The notes under the pieces are model-generated. The model saw nothing but the letters and a program-made list of their open reading frames with translations, searched no databases and was not told the origin of the DNA. A stretch of DNA of 64,000 bases from an uncultured Candidatus Saccharibacteria bacterium (lineage in GTDB: Bacteria > Patescibacteriota > Minisyncoccia > Phycocordibacterales > UBA918), in NCBI GenBank assembly GCA_964350735.1, contig CAYGKO010000001.1, positions 246,578 through 310,577 on the forward strand, in the 5' to 3' direction. Shown here in pieces: positions 1 through 61,439 of the stretch (within the stretch, counting starts at the first letter, position 1; every line of letters starts with the position of its first letter). A program made the position numbers and the translations under genes.

Positions 1-1245
1 GTTGATGATGAACTGTTACTAGTTACGACCGATCGGTACGCTAACTTTTCCTACGGGGATGTGATTGCTATCTCCGGTACACTCACCAAACCGGAAGCGT
101 TTGAAACTGATTTAGGACGAACTTTTAATTATCCAGGCTACTTACAAGCGCAAGGAGTTGAATACTTGATTCGCTATGGCCAGGTGGAGCTGGTGGCATC
201 GGGGCAGGGTAATCCGGTCTTGGCAGGTTTGCTTACCGGGAAGTCGTACTTCCAAGCTTCGCTCGCTGATCTCTTGCCTGAACCCCAACTTGGTCTCGCC
301 GAAGGGCTGCTACTTGGTGAGAAGCGGGCTCTTGGTGATGAGTGGACAGAGATCTTCAGGCGAACGGGGATTATTCATATTGTGGTGCTCTCTGGGTACA
401 ACGTGGCGCTCGTAGTGGCGTTTGTGCTCTACGTACTGTCGGTGTTCTTGCCGCTGCGGGGTCGGTTGTGGTTTGGTATGGCCGCGATTGCAGCGTTTGC
501 CCTGATGGTGGGGCTGTCGGCTACGGTGCTCCGGGCGAGCATTATGGCAGCACTTATTTTGCTCGCCCAAGCGACGGGGCGAATTTATCTTATTACCCGA
601 GCACTGTTATTCACGGCGGTGCTGATGGTACTTTTCAATCCGTATATTTTGATTTATGACCCAGGTTTCCAGCTTTCTTTTTTAGCAACGCTTGGGTTGA
701 TCGTAGGGGCGCCCTGGCTGCAGGCGAAGTTGGGGTTTGTGCCAAGCGCGATTGGGGTGCGTGAGTTTCTGACTGCCACAGTGATCACACAAATTTTTGT
801 ATTGCCGCTCTTGCTGTGGCAGATCGGAGAGTTTTCGGTGGTATCGGTGTTGGTAAATGTATTGGTGTTGCCATTGGTTCCGGTCGCGATGTTGCTGACC
901 TTCATCACTGGTATGACGGCGCTGTTGTCTCCGACGCTAGCGTTACCGTTCGCGCACCTTACTGCTTGGTCACTGACGTATATTTTAGCGGTCGCAGAGT
1001 GGTTCGCTGGCTTACCATTTGCTGCGTTTACGGTACCAGCCTTTCCATTTTGGTTAGTAATAGTGAGTTATCTATTGCTTGGAAGTCTGTGTTATTGGTT
1101 GTGGTGCCGGATGCAAGTTGGACCGACAGCATCAAACTCTGTAGCTGGTTGGACGATTGTGGAGGAGGGGGATATACAGGAAACAAAAGACGGCGAGGAA
1201 GCTGAAGCTTCCTCGCCGTCTGAGGTTCCAATTTTCTTCCGCTGA
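1..1245 (+). CDS. comEC: ComEC/Rec2 competence-domain membrane protein; 5' end lies outside the window (first half of a split ComEC)
   Basis: Frame 1 is open back to nt 1. Motif GLLLGEKRALGDEWTEIFRRTGIIHIVVLSGYNVALV is the ComEC Competence domain, followed by many TM helices. The listed GTG at 61 is probably internal. Confidence 0.85.
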   Translation, partial: VDDELLLVTTDRYANFSYGDVIAISGTLTKPEAFETDLGRTFNYPGYLQAQGVEYLIRYGQVELVASGQGNPVLAGLLTGKSYFQASLADLLPEPQLGLAEGLLLGEKRALGDEWTEIFRRTGIIHIVVLSGYNVALVVAFVLYVLSVFLPLRGRLWFGMAAIAAFALMVGLSATVLRASIMAALILLAQATGRIYLITRALLFTAVLMVLFNPYILIYDPGFQLSFLATLGLIVGAPWLQAKLGFVPSAIGVREFLTATVITQIFVLPLLLWQIGEFSVVSVLVNVLVLPLVPVAMLLTFITGMTALLSPTLALPFAHLTAWSLTYILAVAEWFAGLPFAAFTVPAFPFWLVIVSYLLLGSLCYWLWCRMQVGPTASNSVAGWTIVEEGDIQETKDGEEAEASSPSEVPIFFR

Positions 1246-1809
1246 TTAAACGCGTGCCGCCACCACTTCCCAGTTGAGGTTGTTAAACCAGGCGTCGATG
1301 TAGTCACCTTTGGCTGAGGGCAGGAAGTCACGCATGTATGAGTGCTCCCACATATCAAGCGCAAGAACCATATCGACGTCGCCGAGTTGTCCTTGGTGCT
1401 GCTCATCTACCCATGTCTGCACGAGCTGATTCGTGGTTCGATCGATGTAGAGCATGGCCCAGCCAACCCCTCGCGTTTTGGCAATGGTGGCAAAGCGCTC
1501 CTTCCAGACGTCAAAGCTGCCCCATTGCGTCTCGATCAGGTCTTTCAAAGTTCCATTTGGCAGCGCTTTAGTACCGCCTTCAAACTGAGCAAAGTAGTAC
1601 TCGTGGTTTTTCATACCACCAAACTCAAACCCGAGCCGTCGCTGCATCTCGGCTTGTGCGTAGCTGTTGTCGTCATCAACTGTAAGCATCGTTTCGCGAA
1701 TCAGGTTGACGTGCTTCACGTAGCCAGCGTAGAGGCCGAGGTGTAAGTCGATGCTTTCACGGGAAATGCCGCTAAGTTCAGGAATATCAAAGGTTTTTGC
1801 TTCGTACAT
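1246..1809 (-). CDS. sod: Fe/Mn-family superoxide dismutase
   Basis: DMWEHSYMRDF is the Fe/Mn SOD signature (DxWEHAYY); length 187 aa; metal-ligand His residues are positioned N-terminally. Confidence 0.9.
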   Translation of the reverse strand: MYEAKTFDIPELSGISRESIDLHLGLYAGYVKHVNLIRETMLTVDDDNSYAQAEMQRRLGFEFGGMKNHEYYFAQFEGGTKALPNGTLKDLIETQWGSFDVWKERFATIAKTRGVGWAMLYIDRTTNQLVQTWVDEQHQGQLGDVDMVLALDMWEHSYMRDFLPSAKGDYIDAWFNNLNWEVVAARV

Positions 1810-1830
1810 AGTTACTAGTGGTTATTTCTA

Positions 1831-2730
1831 ATGCCGGCATTGTATCATAAGGACTATATGGATGATGTGGTGATACGAATTCGTTTGTTGGTGCTGTTAG
1901 TTCTACTCAGTGCAGCAGGGTTTATATGGATGGGCGTCTGGGGACAGACAGCTGATGCGACCGAGACTTCATTTCTTCAGGTGCAGTTTTTGGATGTTGG
2001 GCAAGGGGACGCGATTTTAATACAGGCCCCAACGGGAGAAGTGATGCTCGTAGACGGTGGACGTGACGCTGGAGTAGTGCGACAGCTCAGTCAGGAATTA
2101 GGGTGGTTTGATCGTGATATTGATGTGCTCGTGAGTACGCATCCAGACTTAGATCACATCGGTGGGTTGGTTGATGTGCTAGCGCGTTATACAGTCGGCA
2201 CTATTGTTACTACTGAAAACACGGGCGAAAGTTTGGCCGCTGCTGCCTATGCAGACGGGGTGCAAACTGAAGGTGCCGCGATTGTATTTGCCCGAGCGGG
2301 GCAAGTCATTCATTTAGGGGCATCGACGACCGTGCGCGTATTGTCGCCGGCGCAAAACCCAGCTCAACTCGAGAGTAATGCCAGCTCAATTGTGCTGCAG
2401 GTGCAGTACGGTGAGATCGAATTTATGCTCACAGGAGACGCACCGAAAGGGATTGAAGATTATTTGGTGACCCAGCATGGTGCGACACTCGAAAGTGAAG
2501 TGTTGAAGCTCGGACATCATGGTTCAGACACCTCAACCTCAGCCATATTTTTAGAAGCAGTCAGTCCAACCTATGGCGTTGTGTCAGCAGGGAAAGACAA
2601 TCGTTACGGGCATCCTCATCCAGACGTAGTAGCGCGCGCCAGCGCAGCTGGCGCGCGAGTCATCTCAACGGCCGAGTCTGGAACTGTTTCATTTGCAACT
2701 GATGGTACGTCAGTATGGCAACAACATTAA
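1831..2730 (+). CDS. ComEC-type metallo-beta-lactamase domain protein (second half of split ComEC); ATG at 1858 has the better RBS (AAGGA)
   Basis: LDVGQGDAILIQ...VDGG...STHPDLDHIGG...LKLGHHGSDTS...NRYGHPH matches the ComEC C-terminal MBL domain exactly; N-terminal TM helix. Confidence 0.85.
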   Translation: MPALYHKDYMDDVVIRIRLLVLLVLLSAAGFIWMGVWGQTADATETSFLQVQFLDVGQGDAILIQAPTGEVMLVDGGRDAGVVRQLSQELGWFDRDIDVLVSTHPDLDHIGGLVDVLARYTVGTIVTTENTGESLAAAAYADGVQTEGAAIVFARAGQVIHLGASTTVRVLSPAQNPAQLESNASSIVLQVQYGEIEFMLTGDAPKGIEDYLVTQHGATLESEVLKLGHHGSDTSTSAIFLEAVSPTYGVVSAGKDNRYGHPHPDVVARASAAGARVISTAESGTVSFATDGTSVWQQH

Positions 2731-2772: not shown

Positions 2773-4458
2773 ATGTGTACGTACAACCTTAAAAAATCAT
2801 TGTTAGCATTTATCGTCGTTAGTGTTCTTGGGGTTAGCTTCGTTGTTCCATTTCCAGTCCATGCCCAAGCAGAAAACATGGATCGTGAGCAGATCATATC
2901 GCTCATTATGCAATTATTGGCAACGTTACAGACACAGTCGACTACGGCGTCACCAACCTTTGGTACTTCTCCTGAAGGAGGTTTCACATCATCAGGCTTT
3001 AGTGTTGGTGATGAAGTGAAAACTTCCGCTATCTTGCGGGTTCGTTCTGGACCAGGTGTAAATAATAGTTTAGTGAATAACATAGCGGCGTACACCACTG
3101 GCTCAATCGTGAGCGGCCCAAGATACGCCGATGGGTATACGTGGTGGTTAGTCCAATACAATAACGGTACGCGAGGTTGGAGTGCTGAAGGGTGGTTTAC
3201 AAAGCTTTCAAAGAACAATGTAACCCCATTAGTATTGGAAGATGTTTCGGTCACCGTTGCGGATCCCGATTCTGGAGATGTATATGAATATGGGGATCGA
3301 TTGACTGTTACATGGAACCAACAGGGTTCAGTACCAAGAAATAGCGAAGCGTGCGTTACGCTCTATAATGTACGTACAAAAAATTCCTTTGCTTTTCCAC
3401 CTAGTGGTGCAGGTTGTGTAGATATAGCTGGTGAAGAGCCGCAGAGTGGCGTTAGTGCTGAAGTGATTAGAAATTCTGGATACGACCTAGGTCCTGGAAA
3501 CTATCGGGCTGTTGTCACTTTGCGTGGACCAGGAGTGGGATACAAAGACGGAGCTATCATTGCAGAAGCTAAAAGTGGTACGTTTTATATAGAAGACGTA
3601 CTTAAGGAAGAGAAAGACTATGACATTGATATTACTTCACCTCGTCGAGGTGCTGCGTATGAAATTGGCGATAGAATCACAGTGAAATGGGACCATAATG
3701 ATCTGGAAGATGATGTGTTGAACGTCACGCTGCTTGGTCCACTTGATGGATATAAAGCAGAGCGACATATGGTGCAAAGTTATCTAATTGATAAAGGCTC
3801 AGCTTCATTTACAATTCCAGAAGCTGATAGCTTGGGGAGAGTTCGAGAAGGTCGCTACGAACTCTCTGTGTGGGTGACAAATATTAAAGATGGTAGTGCA
3901 AAGTCAGTGTCTGATGATGTGGTAATTGAAATCAATGACAAAAAGGATGTGAGTGCCGTAGATATTGAGTTTATTGATAACGATACGCGGATCAAGACAA
4001 GCTCACCTGCGCTGGGTGAATGGGGTAACTTTACGGTTGAGTTTGAGATTATTGCTGGAGATGAAGATGTATGGATAAAAAATTCACTTTATGGAACCCA
4101 TCAAAATAATTCTAGTTCGCTGTATCAGCCCAAGTATAGCGTTATGAAAGATGGTGAAGTTGTAAGCAACTTCACTGGTAACTTTTCGTCTATGCAGCCT
4201 GGCTTCCTTAGTACCGCTTCCTATGCATACCCAATTGCTGACGAAAAAAATGATAATTATTACGTTGTAAAAGCGGGGGACAGTGAAAAATTTACAGTTG
4301 ATATCACGATGACAGTAAAGGAATCCGCAGATTATCAAGTTCATATAGAGGGTCCACTGTATGTGAAGACTAAGTCTGGAGATACGGTTGTTCTCAATAT
4401 TGATGAAGATGAATTCAGGACGGCTGAGCTTTATATTGAAGGAGAAGACTCACTGTAA
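2773..4458 (+). CDS. secreted protein with bacterial SH3-like domain and repeated Ig-like modules
   Basis: Signal peptide MCTYNLKKSLLAFIVVSVLGVSFVVPFPVHA. SH3b-like segment RVRSGPGVNNS...GYTWWLVQYNNGTRGWSAEGWF. Internal repeats GDRLTVTWNQQG / GDRITVKWDHND. Confidence 0.6.
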   Translation: MCTYNLKKSLLAFIVVSVLGVSFVVPFPVHAQAENMDREQIISLIMQLLATLQTQSTTASPTFGTSPEGGFTSSGFSVGDEVKTSAILRVRSGPGVNNSLVNNIAAYTTGSIVSGPRYADGYTWWLVQYNNGTRGWSAEGWFTKLSKNNVTPLVLEDVSVTVADPDSGDVYEYGDRLTVTWNQQGSVPRNSEACVTLYNVRTKNSFAFPPSGAGCVDIAGEEPQSGVSAEVIRNSGYDLGPGNYRAVVTLRGPGVGYKDGAIIAEAKSGTFYIEDVLKEEKDYDIDITSPRRGAAYEIGDRITVKWDHNDLEDDVLNVTLLGPLDGYKAERHMVQSYLIDKGSASFTIPEADSLGRVREGRYELSVWVTNIKDGSAKSVSDDVVIEINDKKDVSAVDIEFIDNDTRIKTSSPALGEWGNFTVEFEIIAGDEDVWIKNSLYGTHQNNSSSLYQPKYSVMKDGEVVSNFTGNFSSMQPGFLSTASYAYPIADEKNDNYYVVKAGDSEKFTVDITMTVKESADYQVHIEGPLYVKTKSGDTVVLNIDEDEFRTAELYIEGEDSL

Positions 4459-4467
4459 AAGATAACA

Positions 4468-4500
4468 AAAAAGACCGGCGCTGTGCGCCGGTCTTTTTTG
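4468..4500. terminator. bidirectional rho-independent terminator between 2773..4458 (+) and rpmB (-)
   Basis: GACCGGCGC-tgt-GCGCCGGTC stem flanked by A-run and T-run. Confidence 0.8.
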
Positions 4501-4517
4501 TTTTTCTCTGAGAGAGA

Positions 4518-60932: not shown

Positions 60933-61033
60933 TATACAGATCACATACGCACGTTATGTCTCAGTAGATTTTAAAAAAGCACCCAATTGGGAGCTTTTTT
61001 AAACTTTCATATATTTCTACATACTTCTATGTC

Positions 61034-61439
61034 GGTGGAGATGGCGGGAGTTGAACCCGCGTCCGAATCAGGATTCCAAATGTGAGTCTACAGTGCGTAG
61101 ACGCTTCTTTGATTTAAAACTAGTAGCTATAGAAGTGACAAAACACTACTGGTTCGAGTTCGTACAATCTCGATCTGCTACGTGAACGGCGTAATAGTAT
61201 CCAGTCTCGTGTTTATTCTACCCAATCAGCCGTATGAGACGTTTAACTGATGAGCATCGCATCGGCGAGCGGATGGTTACGCTACAGCGGGTGCGAATCC
61301 GAACGCGTTAGCGTACGGACTTGGTATTGCTTTGTTTGCAAATACGGGTGGAACCTTTTAACGAATTGATTCCAATTTCGACACTGCACACAATGGGCAC
61401 GCTAACCGTCGATGCCTGGCATCCCCGGAAAGTTTTTAA
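61034..61439 (-). ncRNA. ssrA: tmRNA (transfer-messenger RNA)
   Basis: Minus-strand 5' end GGGGATGCCAGGCATCGACGG and 3' end GGACGCGGGTTCAACTCCCGCCATCTCCACC match the tmRNA tRNA-like domain (E. coli: GGACGCGGGUUCAACUCCCGCCAGCUCCACCA). Putative resume codon GCA about nt 88 in ...GUAUUUGCAAAC..., reading ANKAIPSPYANAFGFAPAVA-stop. smpB lies 570 nt upstream. Confidence 0.85.

Follow-up and report, generated by a model that had tools for sequence, protein, structure and literature searches.

A two-gene ComEC with an antisense superoxide dismutase gene between its halves in a Candidatus Saccharibacteria bacterium and Patescibacteria relatives

The comEC-N, sod and comEC-C genes

The analysed DNA (hereafter the window, 64,000 nt) is part of contig CAYGKO010000001.1 of an uncultured Candidatus Saccharibacteria bacterium (GCA_964350735.1; positions 246,578-310,577, forward strand). 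Its first genes are the 3' part of comEC-N (1..1245, plus strand), an intact sod gene (1246..1809, minus strand), convergent with comEC-N and divergent from the following gene, and comEC-C (1858..2730, plus strand). To our knowledge, all transformable bacteria take in DNA through ComEC, and Patescibacteria are thought to exchange genes, and perhaps to obtain nucleotides, by means of it. A sequence-only reading of the window had described separate Competence-domain and MBL-domain (metallo-beta-lactamase-type) genes with an antisense sod between them; this description stands, and all its coordinates hold.

As for comEC-N, frame 1 is open from the window edge to a TGA at 1243-1245, so that the Competence-domain gene does end at 1245. 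This part encodes residues 119-532 of P0122, the complete 532-aa comEC-N protein of the genome, made of an OB fold (DUF4131) and the Competence channel domain. It matches PF03772 (Competence) with an E-value of 8.3e-55 over 268 of the 270 profile positions and TIGR00361 at positions 83-408, and it aligns to residues 143-494 of the cryo-EM ComEC (30bt/32ks). Of DUF4131, the window contains only the tail, which scores 21.8 bits and so misses the cut-off, the corresponding PF13567 N-terminal OB fold being present in full-length P0122 and in all of the best 120 comEC-N homologues. The latter are stand-alone proteins of 404-581 aa with DUF4131 and Competence only. The protein terminates with the last channel TM helix (TM10 equivalent), followed by a 45-aa cytoplasmic tail, and contains no MBL domain.

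comEC-C encodes the membrane-anchored nuclease half as a stand-alone protein of 290 aa from ATG 1858, or of 299 aa (1831-2730) from an alternative upstream start at 1831, the former being favoured by the N-termini of homologues and by the 290-aa database entry P0001. A single TM helix (about 1873-1947), equivalent to TM11 of ComEC, precedes a beta-lactamase-like domain (about 1972-2721). The product matches positions 415-663 of TIGR00361 (E 2.6e-39) and the crystal structure of the ComEC beta-lactamase-like domain, 9ic4 (sequence E 2.3e-32), and aligns to residues 534-792 of 30bt. Its AF2 model (pLDDT 90) has an N-terminal helix at residues 3-41, and the top Foldseek match of this model is the ComEC MBL domain (E 3.6e-25, TM 0.83). 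The metal-binding His/Asp motifs of that domain are present, but on a separate protein: D60, H104, D106, D108/H109, D203, H229/H230 and H261 are invariant in 20 homologues, in agreement with the earlier claim of a stand-alone TM plus MBL protein with ComEC C-terminal motifs. The best 120 MBL homologues are likewise all stand-alone (269-324 aa). Neither ORF reaches the 190-bit cut-off of TIGR00361 for a single-polypeptide ComEC (80.4 and 134.9 bits). In an exact look-up of the contig index, the 299-aa ORF and the SOD gave no match and a 2.9-kb Logan contig was the sole match of the 290-aa P0001, so that the upstream part of the locus in this genome is known through the protein P0122 only.

The sod gene is complete, from 1809 to 1246, and encodes a 187-aa protein that matches Sod_Fe_C (E 4.9e-23), scores 23.3 bits with Sod_Fe_N (below the cut-off of 27) and aligns over residues 15-183 to the Fe-SOD 1wb8 (E 2.6e-24). 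It has the two-domain Sod_Fe fold with its His, His, Asp and His metal ligands, H23, H69, D152 and H156, which are invariant in 15 orthologues. Judged from its sequence, this is an ordinary cytoplasmic Fe/Mn superoxide dismutase. The GC content of the gene shows neither an anomaly nor a compositional break.

Spacing, terminator and divergent control region

The stop codon of sod (TTA as read on the plus strand, 1246-1248) directly abuts that of comEC-N, with a spacing of 0 nt, as had been reported. On the other side, the gap of about 48 nt between the sod and MBL starts holds for ATG 1858, and shrinks to 21 nt if translation starts at 1831. Inside the last comEC-N codons lies an intrinsic-terminator-like hairpin of sod with its T-tract (1178..1221, minus strand; KDGEEAEASSPSE). 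The hairpin itself (1221..1188) starts 24 nt downstream of the sod stop, comprises 15 bp, of which 10 are G-C, and is followed by a T-tract at 1187..1178. Its minimum free energy is -35.2 kcal/mol (z = -6.2), a stability attained by none of 200 shuffled sequences. A similar hairpin is found at locus L002, where the stem arm GGCGAGGAAGC is identical and the other arm differs by one base. Since this predicted terminator is embedded in comEC-N codons, the 3' ends of the sod mRNA and of comEC-N necessarily overlap. On the plus strand, no recognisable terminator was found in the window between the end of comEC-N (1245) and 4464, so that read-through across the antisense sod is possible there.

The region between the divergent genes (1810..1857) carries a -10-like box, TATCAT, at 1843-1848 on the plus strand, 9 nt before ATG 1858 (its minus-strand reverse complement is given as TATGAT), and a perfect palindrome, AATGCCGGCATT, at 1830-1841. 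The motif is conserved at loci L002, L006, L007 and L078. A consensus scan gave no sigma-70 -35/-10 pair in front of sod or of the MBL gene, and the signal near the start codons is a lone -10-like box. Of 69 loci compared, 50 have a TAnnnT box 5-9 nt ahead of the MBL start, vs. 13 +/- 3.2 in shuffled sequences; the box is absent in seven tightly coupled sod-less loci (L038, L041, L048, L053, L068, L070 and L079). Many relatives have overlapping -10 boxes on opposite strands, with 14-20 nt between the sod and MBL start codons. These motifs suggest that sod and the MBL gene lie head-to-head on -10-like boxes typical of leaderless mRNAs. In the window, sod has no close -10 box, and its mRNA leader is probably about 27 nt long. 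The near-zero spacing noticed in the sequence-only reading is therefore real, but no longer striking, given a sod terminator placed within the comEC-N tail and leaderless-type -10 boxes in front of the divergent genes.

Such a layout might also be read as a regulatory module, where the detached nuclease, sharing a promoter head-to-head with sod, would have DNA degradation controlled apart from import and oxidative stress coupled to DNA uptake or scavenging. Nucleotide-auxotrophic cells could, for example, co-induce SOD and a surface DNase when they meet oxygen or a host, and the overlapping convergent sod and comEC-N transcripts would down-tune the channel. We regard this as quite unlikely.

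Recurrence and synteny in relatives

The locus was surveyed from the MBL side in 80 species-representative genome loci and from the sod side in 80 metagenome loci. The order comEC-N(+)/sod(-)/MBL(+) was found in 30 of the 80 genome loci, and sod-MBL at a contig end in six more; 17 have comEC-N and MBL without sod, and three have a fused ComEC, all of them outside Patescibacteria as far as taxon names, unreliable in many of the MAG records, can be followed. From the sod side, both partners are present in 55 of the 80 metagenome loci and the visible partner in a further 13. The split with an intervening sod is thus recurrent in relatives, and is found even at loci whose MBL proteins are only 36-50% identical.

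The sequence-only reading had left two alternatives, a nuclease half acting in trans or an insertion that disrupted comEC. The former fits all the comparative evidence. Concerning the latter, a recent sod insertion, a pseudogene or a chimeric contig would be in line with how odd the locus looks when only one genome is considered, and mobile elements do disrupt comEC elsewhere, as described for Piscirickettsia salmonis (PMC12955456). Against it, more than 90 independent assemblies share the architecture, with protein identities of 36-73%, which makes the arrangement neither chance nor artefact and rules out a mis-assembly. Furthermore, both halves are intact ORFs with invariant catalytic motifs, the locus has no compositional break or mobile element, and no fused ComEC was found among the Patescibacteria loci sampled. 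Disruption or mis-assembly is accordingly rejected as having next to no likelihood. The conserved chromosomal flanks also speak against a single, recently spread mobile cassette. The comparison indicates that the two-gene ComEC with a reversed sod in between is old and inherited rather than a broken gene, and that the split is the norm in the clade and not a peculiarity of this genome.

The junctions vary among loci. The comEC-N and sod stops, which merely abut in the window, overlap by 4-73 nt in 11 of the 30 genome loci, while relatives with a 30-50 nt comEC-N/sod spacer carry hairpins flanked by A and T tracts. Among the loci without sod are true two-cistron operons, whose genes meet at an ATGA or TAG-ATG junction. 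Searching the loci scored as lacking sod with a profile HMM of 41 SODs revealed no additional, more divergent copy; their gaps are occupied by other genes, among them those for a DedA/VTT protein, RNase III, guanylate kinase and NUDIX. In five loci (L076 and four of a Yonathbacteria-type clade), it is a DedA/VTT gene that lies antisense in the place of sod.

These features bear on the idea that comEC-N and the MBL gene are co-transcribed across the antisense sod, as in a noncontiguous operon or excludon, the overlapping convergent transcripts making oxidative-stress defence and DNA uptake mutually exclusive. Abutting or overlapping stops, the obligatory overlap of the 3' transcript ends, the undetected plus-strand terminator between 1245 and 4464 and the reuse of the antisense slot by DedA/VTT would all suit such coupling. 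The idea is less favoured because in many relatives comEC-N and sod are separated by an A/T-flanked terminator that looks bidirectional, and because 50 of the 69 loci have a -10 box belonging to the MBL gene itself. The neighbourhood is, moreover, syntenic throughout, so that its conservation requires no special coupling. As a whole, co-transcription of this type appears very improbable.

The syntenic block reads recJ-rnhA-comEC-N-sod-MBL-rpmB-M50-rpsL, its flanks being conserved in 22-26 of 28 loci. A functional coupling of sod with ComEC had been considered from conservation alone and was rejected, the flanking genes being equally conserved in order. With the whole block as frozen synteny, a sod-ComEC partnership is not needed to explain the arrangement, and the sod wedge is probably not such a partnership. 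It looks like an accident of history, maintained through frozen synteny and a shared promoter, and is handy as a synteny marker for the clade.

Fission point and proposed two-polypeptide ComEC

On the 801-aa cryo-EM ComEC, comEC-N corresponds to residues 143-494 and the MBL half to residues 534-792, which places the fission in the cytoplasmic loop between TM10 and TM11. Likewise, in a fused Ignavibacteriae ComEC the counterpart of residue 4 of the MBL protein is residue 515, shortly ahead of the TM helix 521-546. In the cryo-EM work, as described in PMC13539106, TM10 and TM11 are peripheral with a cytoplasmic helix between them, TM11 is mobile, and the MBL domain sits on a flexible linker, positioned by a small OB-loop interface. 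A break between TM10 and TM11 therefore leaves the peripheral, mobile TM11 with the nuclease, and by analogy with that structure the site is structurally tolerant.

Our main reading, to which we give a probability of about 70%, is that ComEC here is a two-polypeptide machine derived from an ancient gene fission, with the assembly and history proposed below. Gene 1 (532 aa) would provide the OB fold and the ssDNA channel with TM1-10, and gene 2 (about 290 aa) TM11 and the extracytoplasmic metallo-beta-lactamase-type nuclease. The nuclease half would insert N-in/C-out, dock next to the channel by means of its TM helix and of the small OB-loop/MBL contact known from fused ComEC, and degrade the non-transported DNA strand, like the fused C-terminal domain. 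Comparative evidence points to ComEC being encoded, in this genome and many Patescibacteria relatives, by two conserved genes, one for the channel and one for a membrane-anchored nuclease.

The MBL protein may also work independently of the channel, because about 13 Patescibacteria-type loci have an MBL gene with no comEC-N within 5 kb, and because stand-alone homologues occur in Bacillus (cereus group), Lysinibacillus and one Methanosuratincola MAG. Taken further, the TM-anchored protein would, after fission, be a free surface DNase or phosphodiesterase and no longer a ComEC subunit, serving for instance nucleotide scavenging in non-synthesising organisms, while comEC-N alone would act as the channel, as in MBL-less ComECs. 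The leaderless-type promoter box of the MBL gene agrees with this possibility, as does the lack of an MBL domain in about half of known ComECs, as stated in PMC8579336. However, the TM11-equivalent helix has been kept, the best match is to ComEC MBL domains and not to other MBL families, the MBL gene is translationally coupled to comEC-N in several lineages, and in most loci the two genes are 1-2 kb apart. A fully independent nuclease is, on balance, rather unlikely.

For the two-polypeptide ComEC, a history in three steps is proposed: the fused gene would have become two overlapping cistrons; sod would then have been placed antisense between the halves in the ancestor of a large Paceibacteria/Parcubacteria-type group; finally, the MBL gene would have gained its own -10 box at the start codon, so that its mRNA would be leaderless and start head-to-head with that of sod. 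The fission probably predates the sod wedge, as the adjacent sod-less two-cistron loci fall basal in the tree, a rough midpoint-rooted NJ tree without support values from which the order of events was read. The sod gene would have its own promoter and, in the source genome, its own terminator embedded in the comEC-N tail, and would have persisted through promoter sharing with the MBL gene and the frozen synteny of the block.

On this main reading, a large part of the Patescibacteria radiation builds its ComEC from two polypeptides, and readings of domain loss have to be corrected, as a ComEC scored as DUF4131 plus Competence only may have a separately encoded nuclease. The survey of Pimentel & Zhang 2018 was confined to Competence-domain-containing proteins, so that a separate MBL half would go unscored. 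How the strand is degraded in species with an MBL-less ComEC is presented as an open question by Silale et al. 2021 (PMC8579336); for this clade, the detached MBL protein would be a concrete answer as to which protein degrades the non-transported strand when ComEC has no C-terminal domain. The locus also amounts to a natural experiment, in which ComEC tolerates a cut in the TM10-TM11 loop and the nuclease can probably act in trans as a separate chain; this is of use to those who study the structure of ComEC or engineer it. The full-text literature searched, which covers part of the journals, yielded no published account of either the sod wedge or a ComEC divided between two genes in Patescibacteria.

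Symmetric bidirectional promoters, leaderless transcription and noncontiguous operons are known concepts. The present loci resemble the first and the last in being head-to-head and in having an antisense gene between two functionally related genes, a likeness drawn here from the DNA sequence.

The canonical single-chain ComEC/Rec2 (B. subtilis ComEC; 30bt/32ks; TIGR00361) has the same modules in the same order (OB fold, Competence channel, TM11 and MBL nuclease), the same metal-binding motifs and the same predicted topology, with the nuclease outside the cytoplasmic membrane. The source locus differs in distributing them over two polypeptides, cut in the TM10-TM11 cytoplasmic loop, and over two genes with separate expression signals and an antisense sod in between. 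Compared with the MBL-less ComECs (the 'DC' and 'C' profiles of Pimentel & Zhang 2018, e.g. H. pylori ComEC), comEC-N alone would score as 'DC', but its Lactamase_B domain is encoded next door and not lost. EndA of Streptococcus pneumoniae, described as degrading the non-transforming strand, is a membrane-bound nuclease apart from the channel, acting in trans at the outer face of the membrane, as the nuclease half described here would. Its fold is unrelated, whereas the trans nuclease proposed here would be the ComEC domain itself, detached with its TM helix. Finally, the comEC of Piscirickettsia salmonis (PMC12955456) resembles the source locus in having a reading frame interrupted by foreign DNA. 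There, the account is one of mobile elements and presumed loss of function, while the source locus has no mobile element and two strongly conserved halves that appear to be vertically inherited.

The two ComEC genes and the intervening sod gene

The 3' part of comEC-N, the half of ComEC that contains the OB fold together with the Competence domain, occupies positions 1-1245 (+ strand), frame 1 being open from the window edge to a TGA stop at 1243-1245. In a profile search, this ORF matched the Competence domain PF03772 (E 8.3e-55), and it also takes in the last part of DUF4131 and, in TIGR00361, the model of full-length ComEC/Rec2, positions 83-408. The complete comEC-N protein from the same 408-kb contig (P0122) is 532 aa long and displays three N-terminal TM helices, an OB fold and Competence domain; its last TM helix spans about 458-487, leaving a tail of 45 aa.

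The sod gene, at 1809-1246 on the other strand, codes for a 187-aa Fe/Mn superoxide dismutase matching Sod_Fe_C (E 4.9e-23). Residues 15-183 of this protein align with the Sulfolobus Fe-SOD 1wb8 (E 2.6e-24), and its ligands H23, H69, D152 and H156 do not vary across 15 orthologues. The coordinates proposed by the sequence-only reading hold: the Competence domain ends at 1245 and the sod stop directly abuts that of comEC-N.

The MBL gene follows on the + strand, from 1858 (or 1831) to 2730, and codes for one N-terminal helix plus the metallo-beta-lactamase-type domain. Based on the N-termini of homologues and on database entry P0001, ATG 1858 is the more likely start. That this stand-alone protein has the C-terminal motifs of ComEC, as had been claimed, is borne out by its matches to TIGR00361 positions 415-663 (E 2.6e-39) and to 9ic4, a ComEC beta-lactamase-like domain solved by crystallography (E 2.3e-32), as well as by its metal-binding motif residues, all invariant in 20 homologues. 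Its AF2 model (pLDDT 90) places a helix at residues 3-41; in Foldseek, 9ic4 is again the best match of this model (E 3.6e-25). As for RNA genes, the only Rfam match above the gathering threshold in the window was a tmRNA at 61033-61426 (- strand; RF00023, 109.8 bits).

Distribution and probable history of the split

The best 120 MBL homologues in the database are all stand-alone proteins of 269-324 aa, assigned, where a name is given, to Pacebacteria, Nomurabacteria or Patescibacteria, and the best 120 comEC-N homologues (404-581 aa) all carry DUF4131 and Competence only. The MBL orthologues of 69% and 57% identity lie on contigs with HIT protein, recJ and RNase H genes upstream, then comEC-N(+), sod(-) and MBL(+), followed by rpmB(-), an M50-like peptidase gene and rpsL.

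A genome scan with the MBL alignment as query, limited to one genome per species (GTDB representatives), returned 80 loci, which were searched in all six frames with the three window proteins. The order comEC-N>/<sod/MBL> was found in 30 of them, and six further loci have sod-MBL at a contig end. Separate comEC-N and MBL ORFs without sod occur in 17 loci and MBL only in 24, 11 of which belong to Bacillaceae or other non-Patescibacteria. Only three loci hold a single fused ORF, all outside Patescibacteria (Ardenticatenaceae, Ignavibacteriae and Calditrichaceae). Reciprocally, among the best 80 metagenome loci retrieved with the SOD alignment (47-73% identity), 55 have sod between a divergent MBL gene and a convergent comEC-N, 13 further ones carry the expected partner on whichever side is visible, and five, all with short flanks, have neither. 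The GC content of sod is that of its neighbours.

The split with sod in between is thus recurrent. Of the two readings initially offered, the functional split is supported, while disruption of comEC by an insertion is rejected by these loci. Pseudogenisation is excluded by the stand-alone homologues, the recurrent gene order and the lack of fused ComEC in the relatives sampled, and mis-assembly by the recurrence of this order across genome and metagenome loci. Intact ComEC in relatives, named beforehand as evidence against a functional split, was found in no Patescibacteria among the 80 genome loci, so this comparison leaves the split standing. Concerning taxonomy, L006 is labelled Patiriisocius sp. 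and L048 Gammaproteobacteria despite their typical Patescibacteria gene order, and many binned MAGs bearing the label 'Candidatus Saccharibacteria' group with Paceibacteria-type loci; the taxon labels of such records look unreliable.

In nine loci, some named Sungbacteria or Falkowbacteria, comEC-N and MBL are directly adjacent without sod. In six of these the reading frames overlap or abut at the junction, with ATGA in L038 and L053, TAG-ATG in L068, and overlaps of 8 nt in L041 and of 31 nt in L054 and L079, a sequence hallmark of translationally coupled cistrons. Elsewhere, a DedA/VTT membrane protein gene (about 196 aa; PF09335, E 4.8e-16) replaces sod in the antisense slot between the ComEC halves, namely in a Yonathbacteria-type clade (L010, 1073-1669; L013, 3982-4578; L015, 4176-4811; L018, 4372-5031) and in L076 (4190-4810), all on the - strand. 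A few loci have extra genes between sod and MBL, e.g. guanylate kinase or NUDIX, and in L032 comEC-N has moved away while sod is still with MBL.

In a rough neighbour-joining tree of MBL domains, midpoint-rooted and without support values, most adjacent-state loci are basal, and those bearing sod make up a single large crown group, within which DedA, adjacent and unlinked states are nested. On the basis of this tree, the sod-less two-cistron split is probably the older state: sod would have been acquired between the halves after the fission, and occasional secondary changes would have followed.

Stand-alone ComEC-type MBL proteins, 35-42% identical to that of the window, were also observed in the Bacillus cereus group, Lysinibacillus and Psychrobacillus (L066-L073, L075, L081 and L082) and, in the same identity range, in an archaeal Methanosuratincola MAG (L080). 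No Competence-domain gene lies within 5 kb of the MBL gene in any of these loci.

Gene borders and the persistence of sod

Starting 24 nt past the sod stop, inside the last codons of comEC-N, a terminator-like hairpin followed by TTTGTTT lies at 1221-1178 on the - strand (15 bp, 10 G-C pairs; MFE -35.2 kcal/mol, z = -6.2). The hairpin of the close relative L002 is similar, with one stem arm (GGCGAGGAAGC) identical and the other differing by one base. Of the 30 genome loci, 11 have a comEC-N stop that overlaps or abuts the sod stop, and in 13 a gap of 1-75 nt separates the two. Where relatives have a spacer of 30-50 nt, the hairpin is bordered by A and T tracts and resembles a bidirectional terminator.

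At the divergent side, sod and MBL stand head-to-head with 14-70 nt between start codons (1810-1857 in the window; L031, L040, L107, L111, L137, L143, L145, L156, L163 and others), and both starts often have their own TAnnnT box 6-7 nt upstream. Such a box lies 5-9 nt (mostly 6-7) before the MBL start in 50 of 69 Patescibacteria-type loci vs. 13 +/- 3.2 in shuffles (maximum 26), the window having TATCAT at 1843-1848 (+ strand), and before the sod start in 52 of 113 loci vs. 25.8 +/- 4.4. Among the nine adjacent-state loci, it is absent from seven (L038, L041, L048, L053, L068, L070 and L079) and present in L052 and L054. Many relatives have no more than 14-20 nt between the two start codons, with the boxes overlapping on opposite strands, e.g. 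AGTATACT in L040; judging from these motifs, the spacer resembles a minimal, symmetric bidirectional promoter serving two leaderless mRNAs. Across the 73 greedy ORFs taken as the window gene set, motif statistics gave a TAnnnT box 5-9 nt before the first start codon in 22 genes vs. 3 of 73 control positions, and an SD-like motif in only eight, which suggests that leaderless expression may be widespread in this genome. A perfect 12-nt palindrome, AATGCCGGCATT, at 1830-1841 between the divergent starts is identical in L002, and L006 and L007 have other palindromic cores (TGATCA, GAGCTC) at the equivalent position; the palindrome may serve as an operator or form a leader hairpin.

Antisense coupling of the noncontiguous operon or excludon type is possible in this particular genome, since no + strand terminator is recognisable from 1245 to a strong bidirectional one (18 bp) at 4464-4502; as a general rule, it is opposed by the terminators of relatives and the MBL-specific boxes. 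This strong terminator lies 3' of a 561-aa ORF (2773-4458, + strand) between MBL and rpmB, with a signal-peptide-like N-terminus, weak SH3/Ig-like matches and a lower GC content (0.40-0.45); the slot is empty in close relatives L002 and L003, and the window shares the ORF only with L001 and L006.

Locus comparisons gave no evidence of a functional tie between sod and ComEC. The block recJ-RNase H-comEC-N-sod-MBL-rpmB-M50 is kept in 22-26 of 28 sod-bearing genome loci, so the persistence of sod is matched by its neighbours, and it can be explained by a generally frozen gene order together with the promoter region shared with MBL. The intervening sod is a curiosity, best read as frozen synteny.

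The cut site and known ComEC systems

ComEC-N aligns to residues 143-494 of the 801-aa cryo-EM ComEC (30bt/32ks) and the MBL protein, from its residue 48, to 534-792; in a fused Ignavibacteriae ComEC, residue 515 pairs with MBL residue 4 and a TM segment (521-546) follows. These alignments place the cut in the cytoplasmic loop that joins the penultimate TM helix to the last one, which stays with the nuclease. [quoted passage not shown] With these features, fission in the TM10-TM11 loop could plausibly be tolerated, and the structure suggests that the halves may reassemble via TM packing and the OB-MBL contact.

A full-text literature search, in which not all journals were covered, yielded nothing relevant on split or truncated ComEC, or on ComEC with superoxide dismutase and Parcubacteria; nor is split ComEC mentioned in the NAR structure papers of 2025 and 2026, the 2023 Cell paper on Saccharibacteria genetics and the paper on MBL-fold genes in CPR. 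The main evolutionary survey, by Pimentel & Zhang 2018 (PMC6299819), restricted its scoring to Competence-domain-containing proteins from complete genomes (classes C, DC, CL and DCL), so that split ComECs would count as having 'lost' Lactamase_B. According to Silale et al. 2021 (PMC8579336), almost half of ComECs are without the C-terminal domain, and the fate of the non-transforming strand in such organisms is called an open question.

The split ComEC is apparently an undescribed, clade-wide variant of a known system. Its modest mechanistic lessons would be that ComEC can have its nuclease as a separate, TM-anchored subunit and that the TM10-TM11 loop may serve as a permissive cut site. Pneumococcal EndA, of unrelated fold, comes closest in function as a strand-degrading nuclease that acts in trans, and Piscirickettsia comEC offers a contrast, being truly disrupted by transposable elements. 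The components here, ComEC modules and an Fe/Mn SOD, are ordinary; the two-polypeptide organisation is the difference found from described ComECs.
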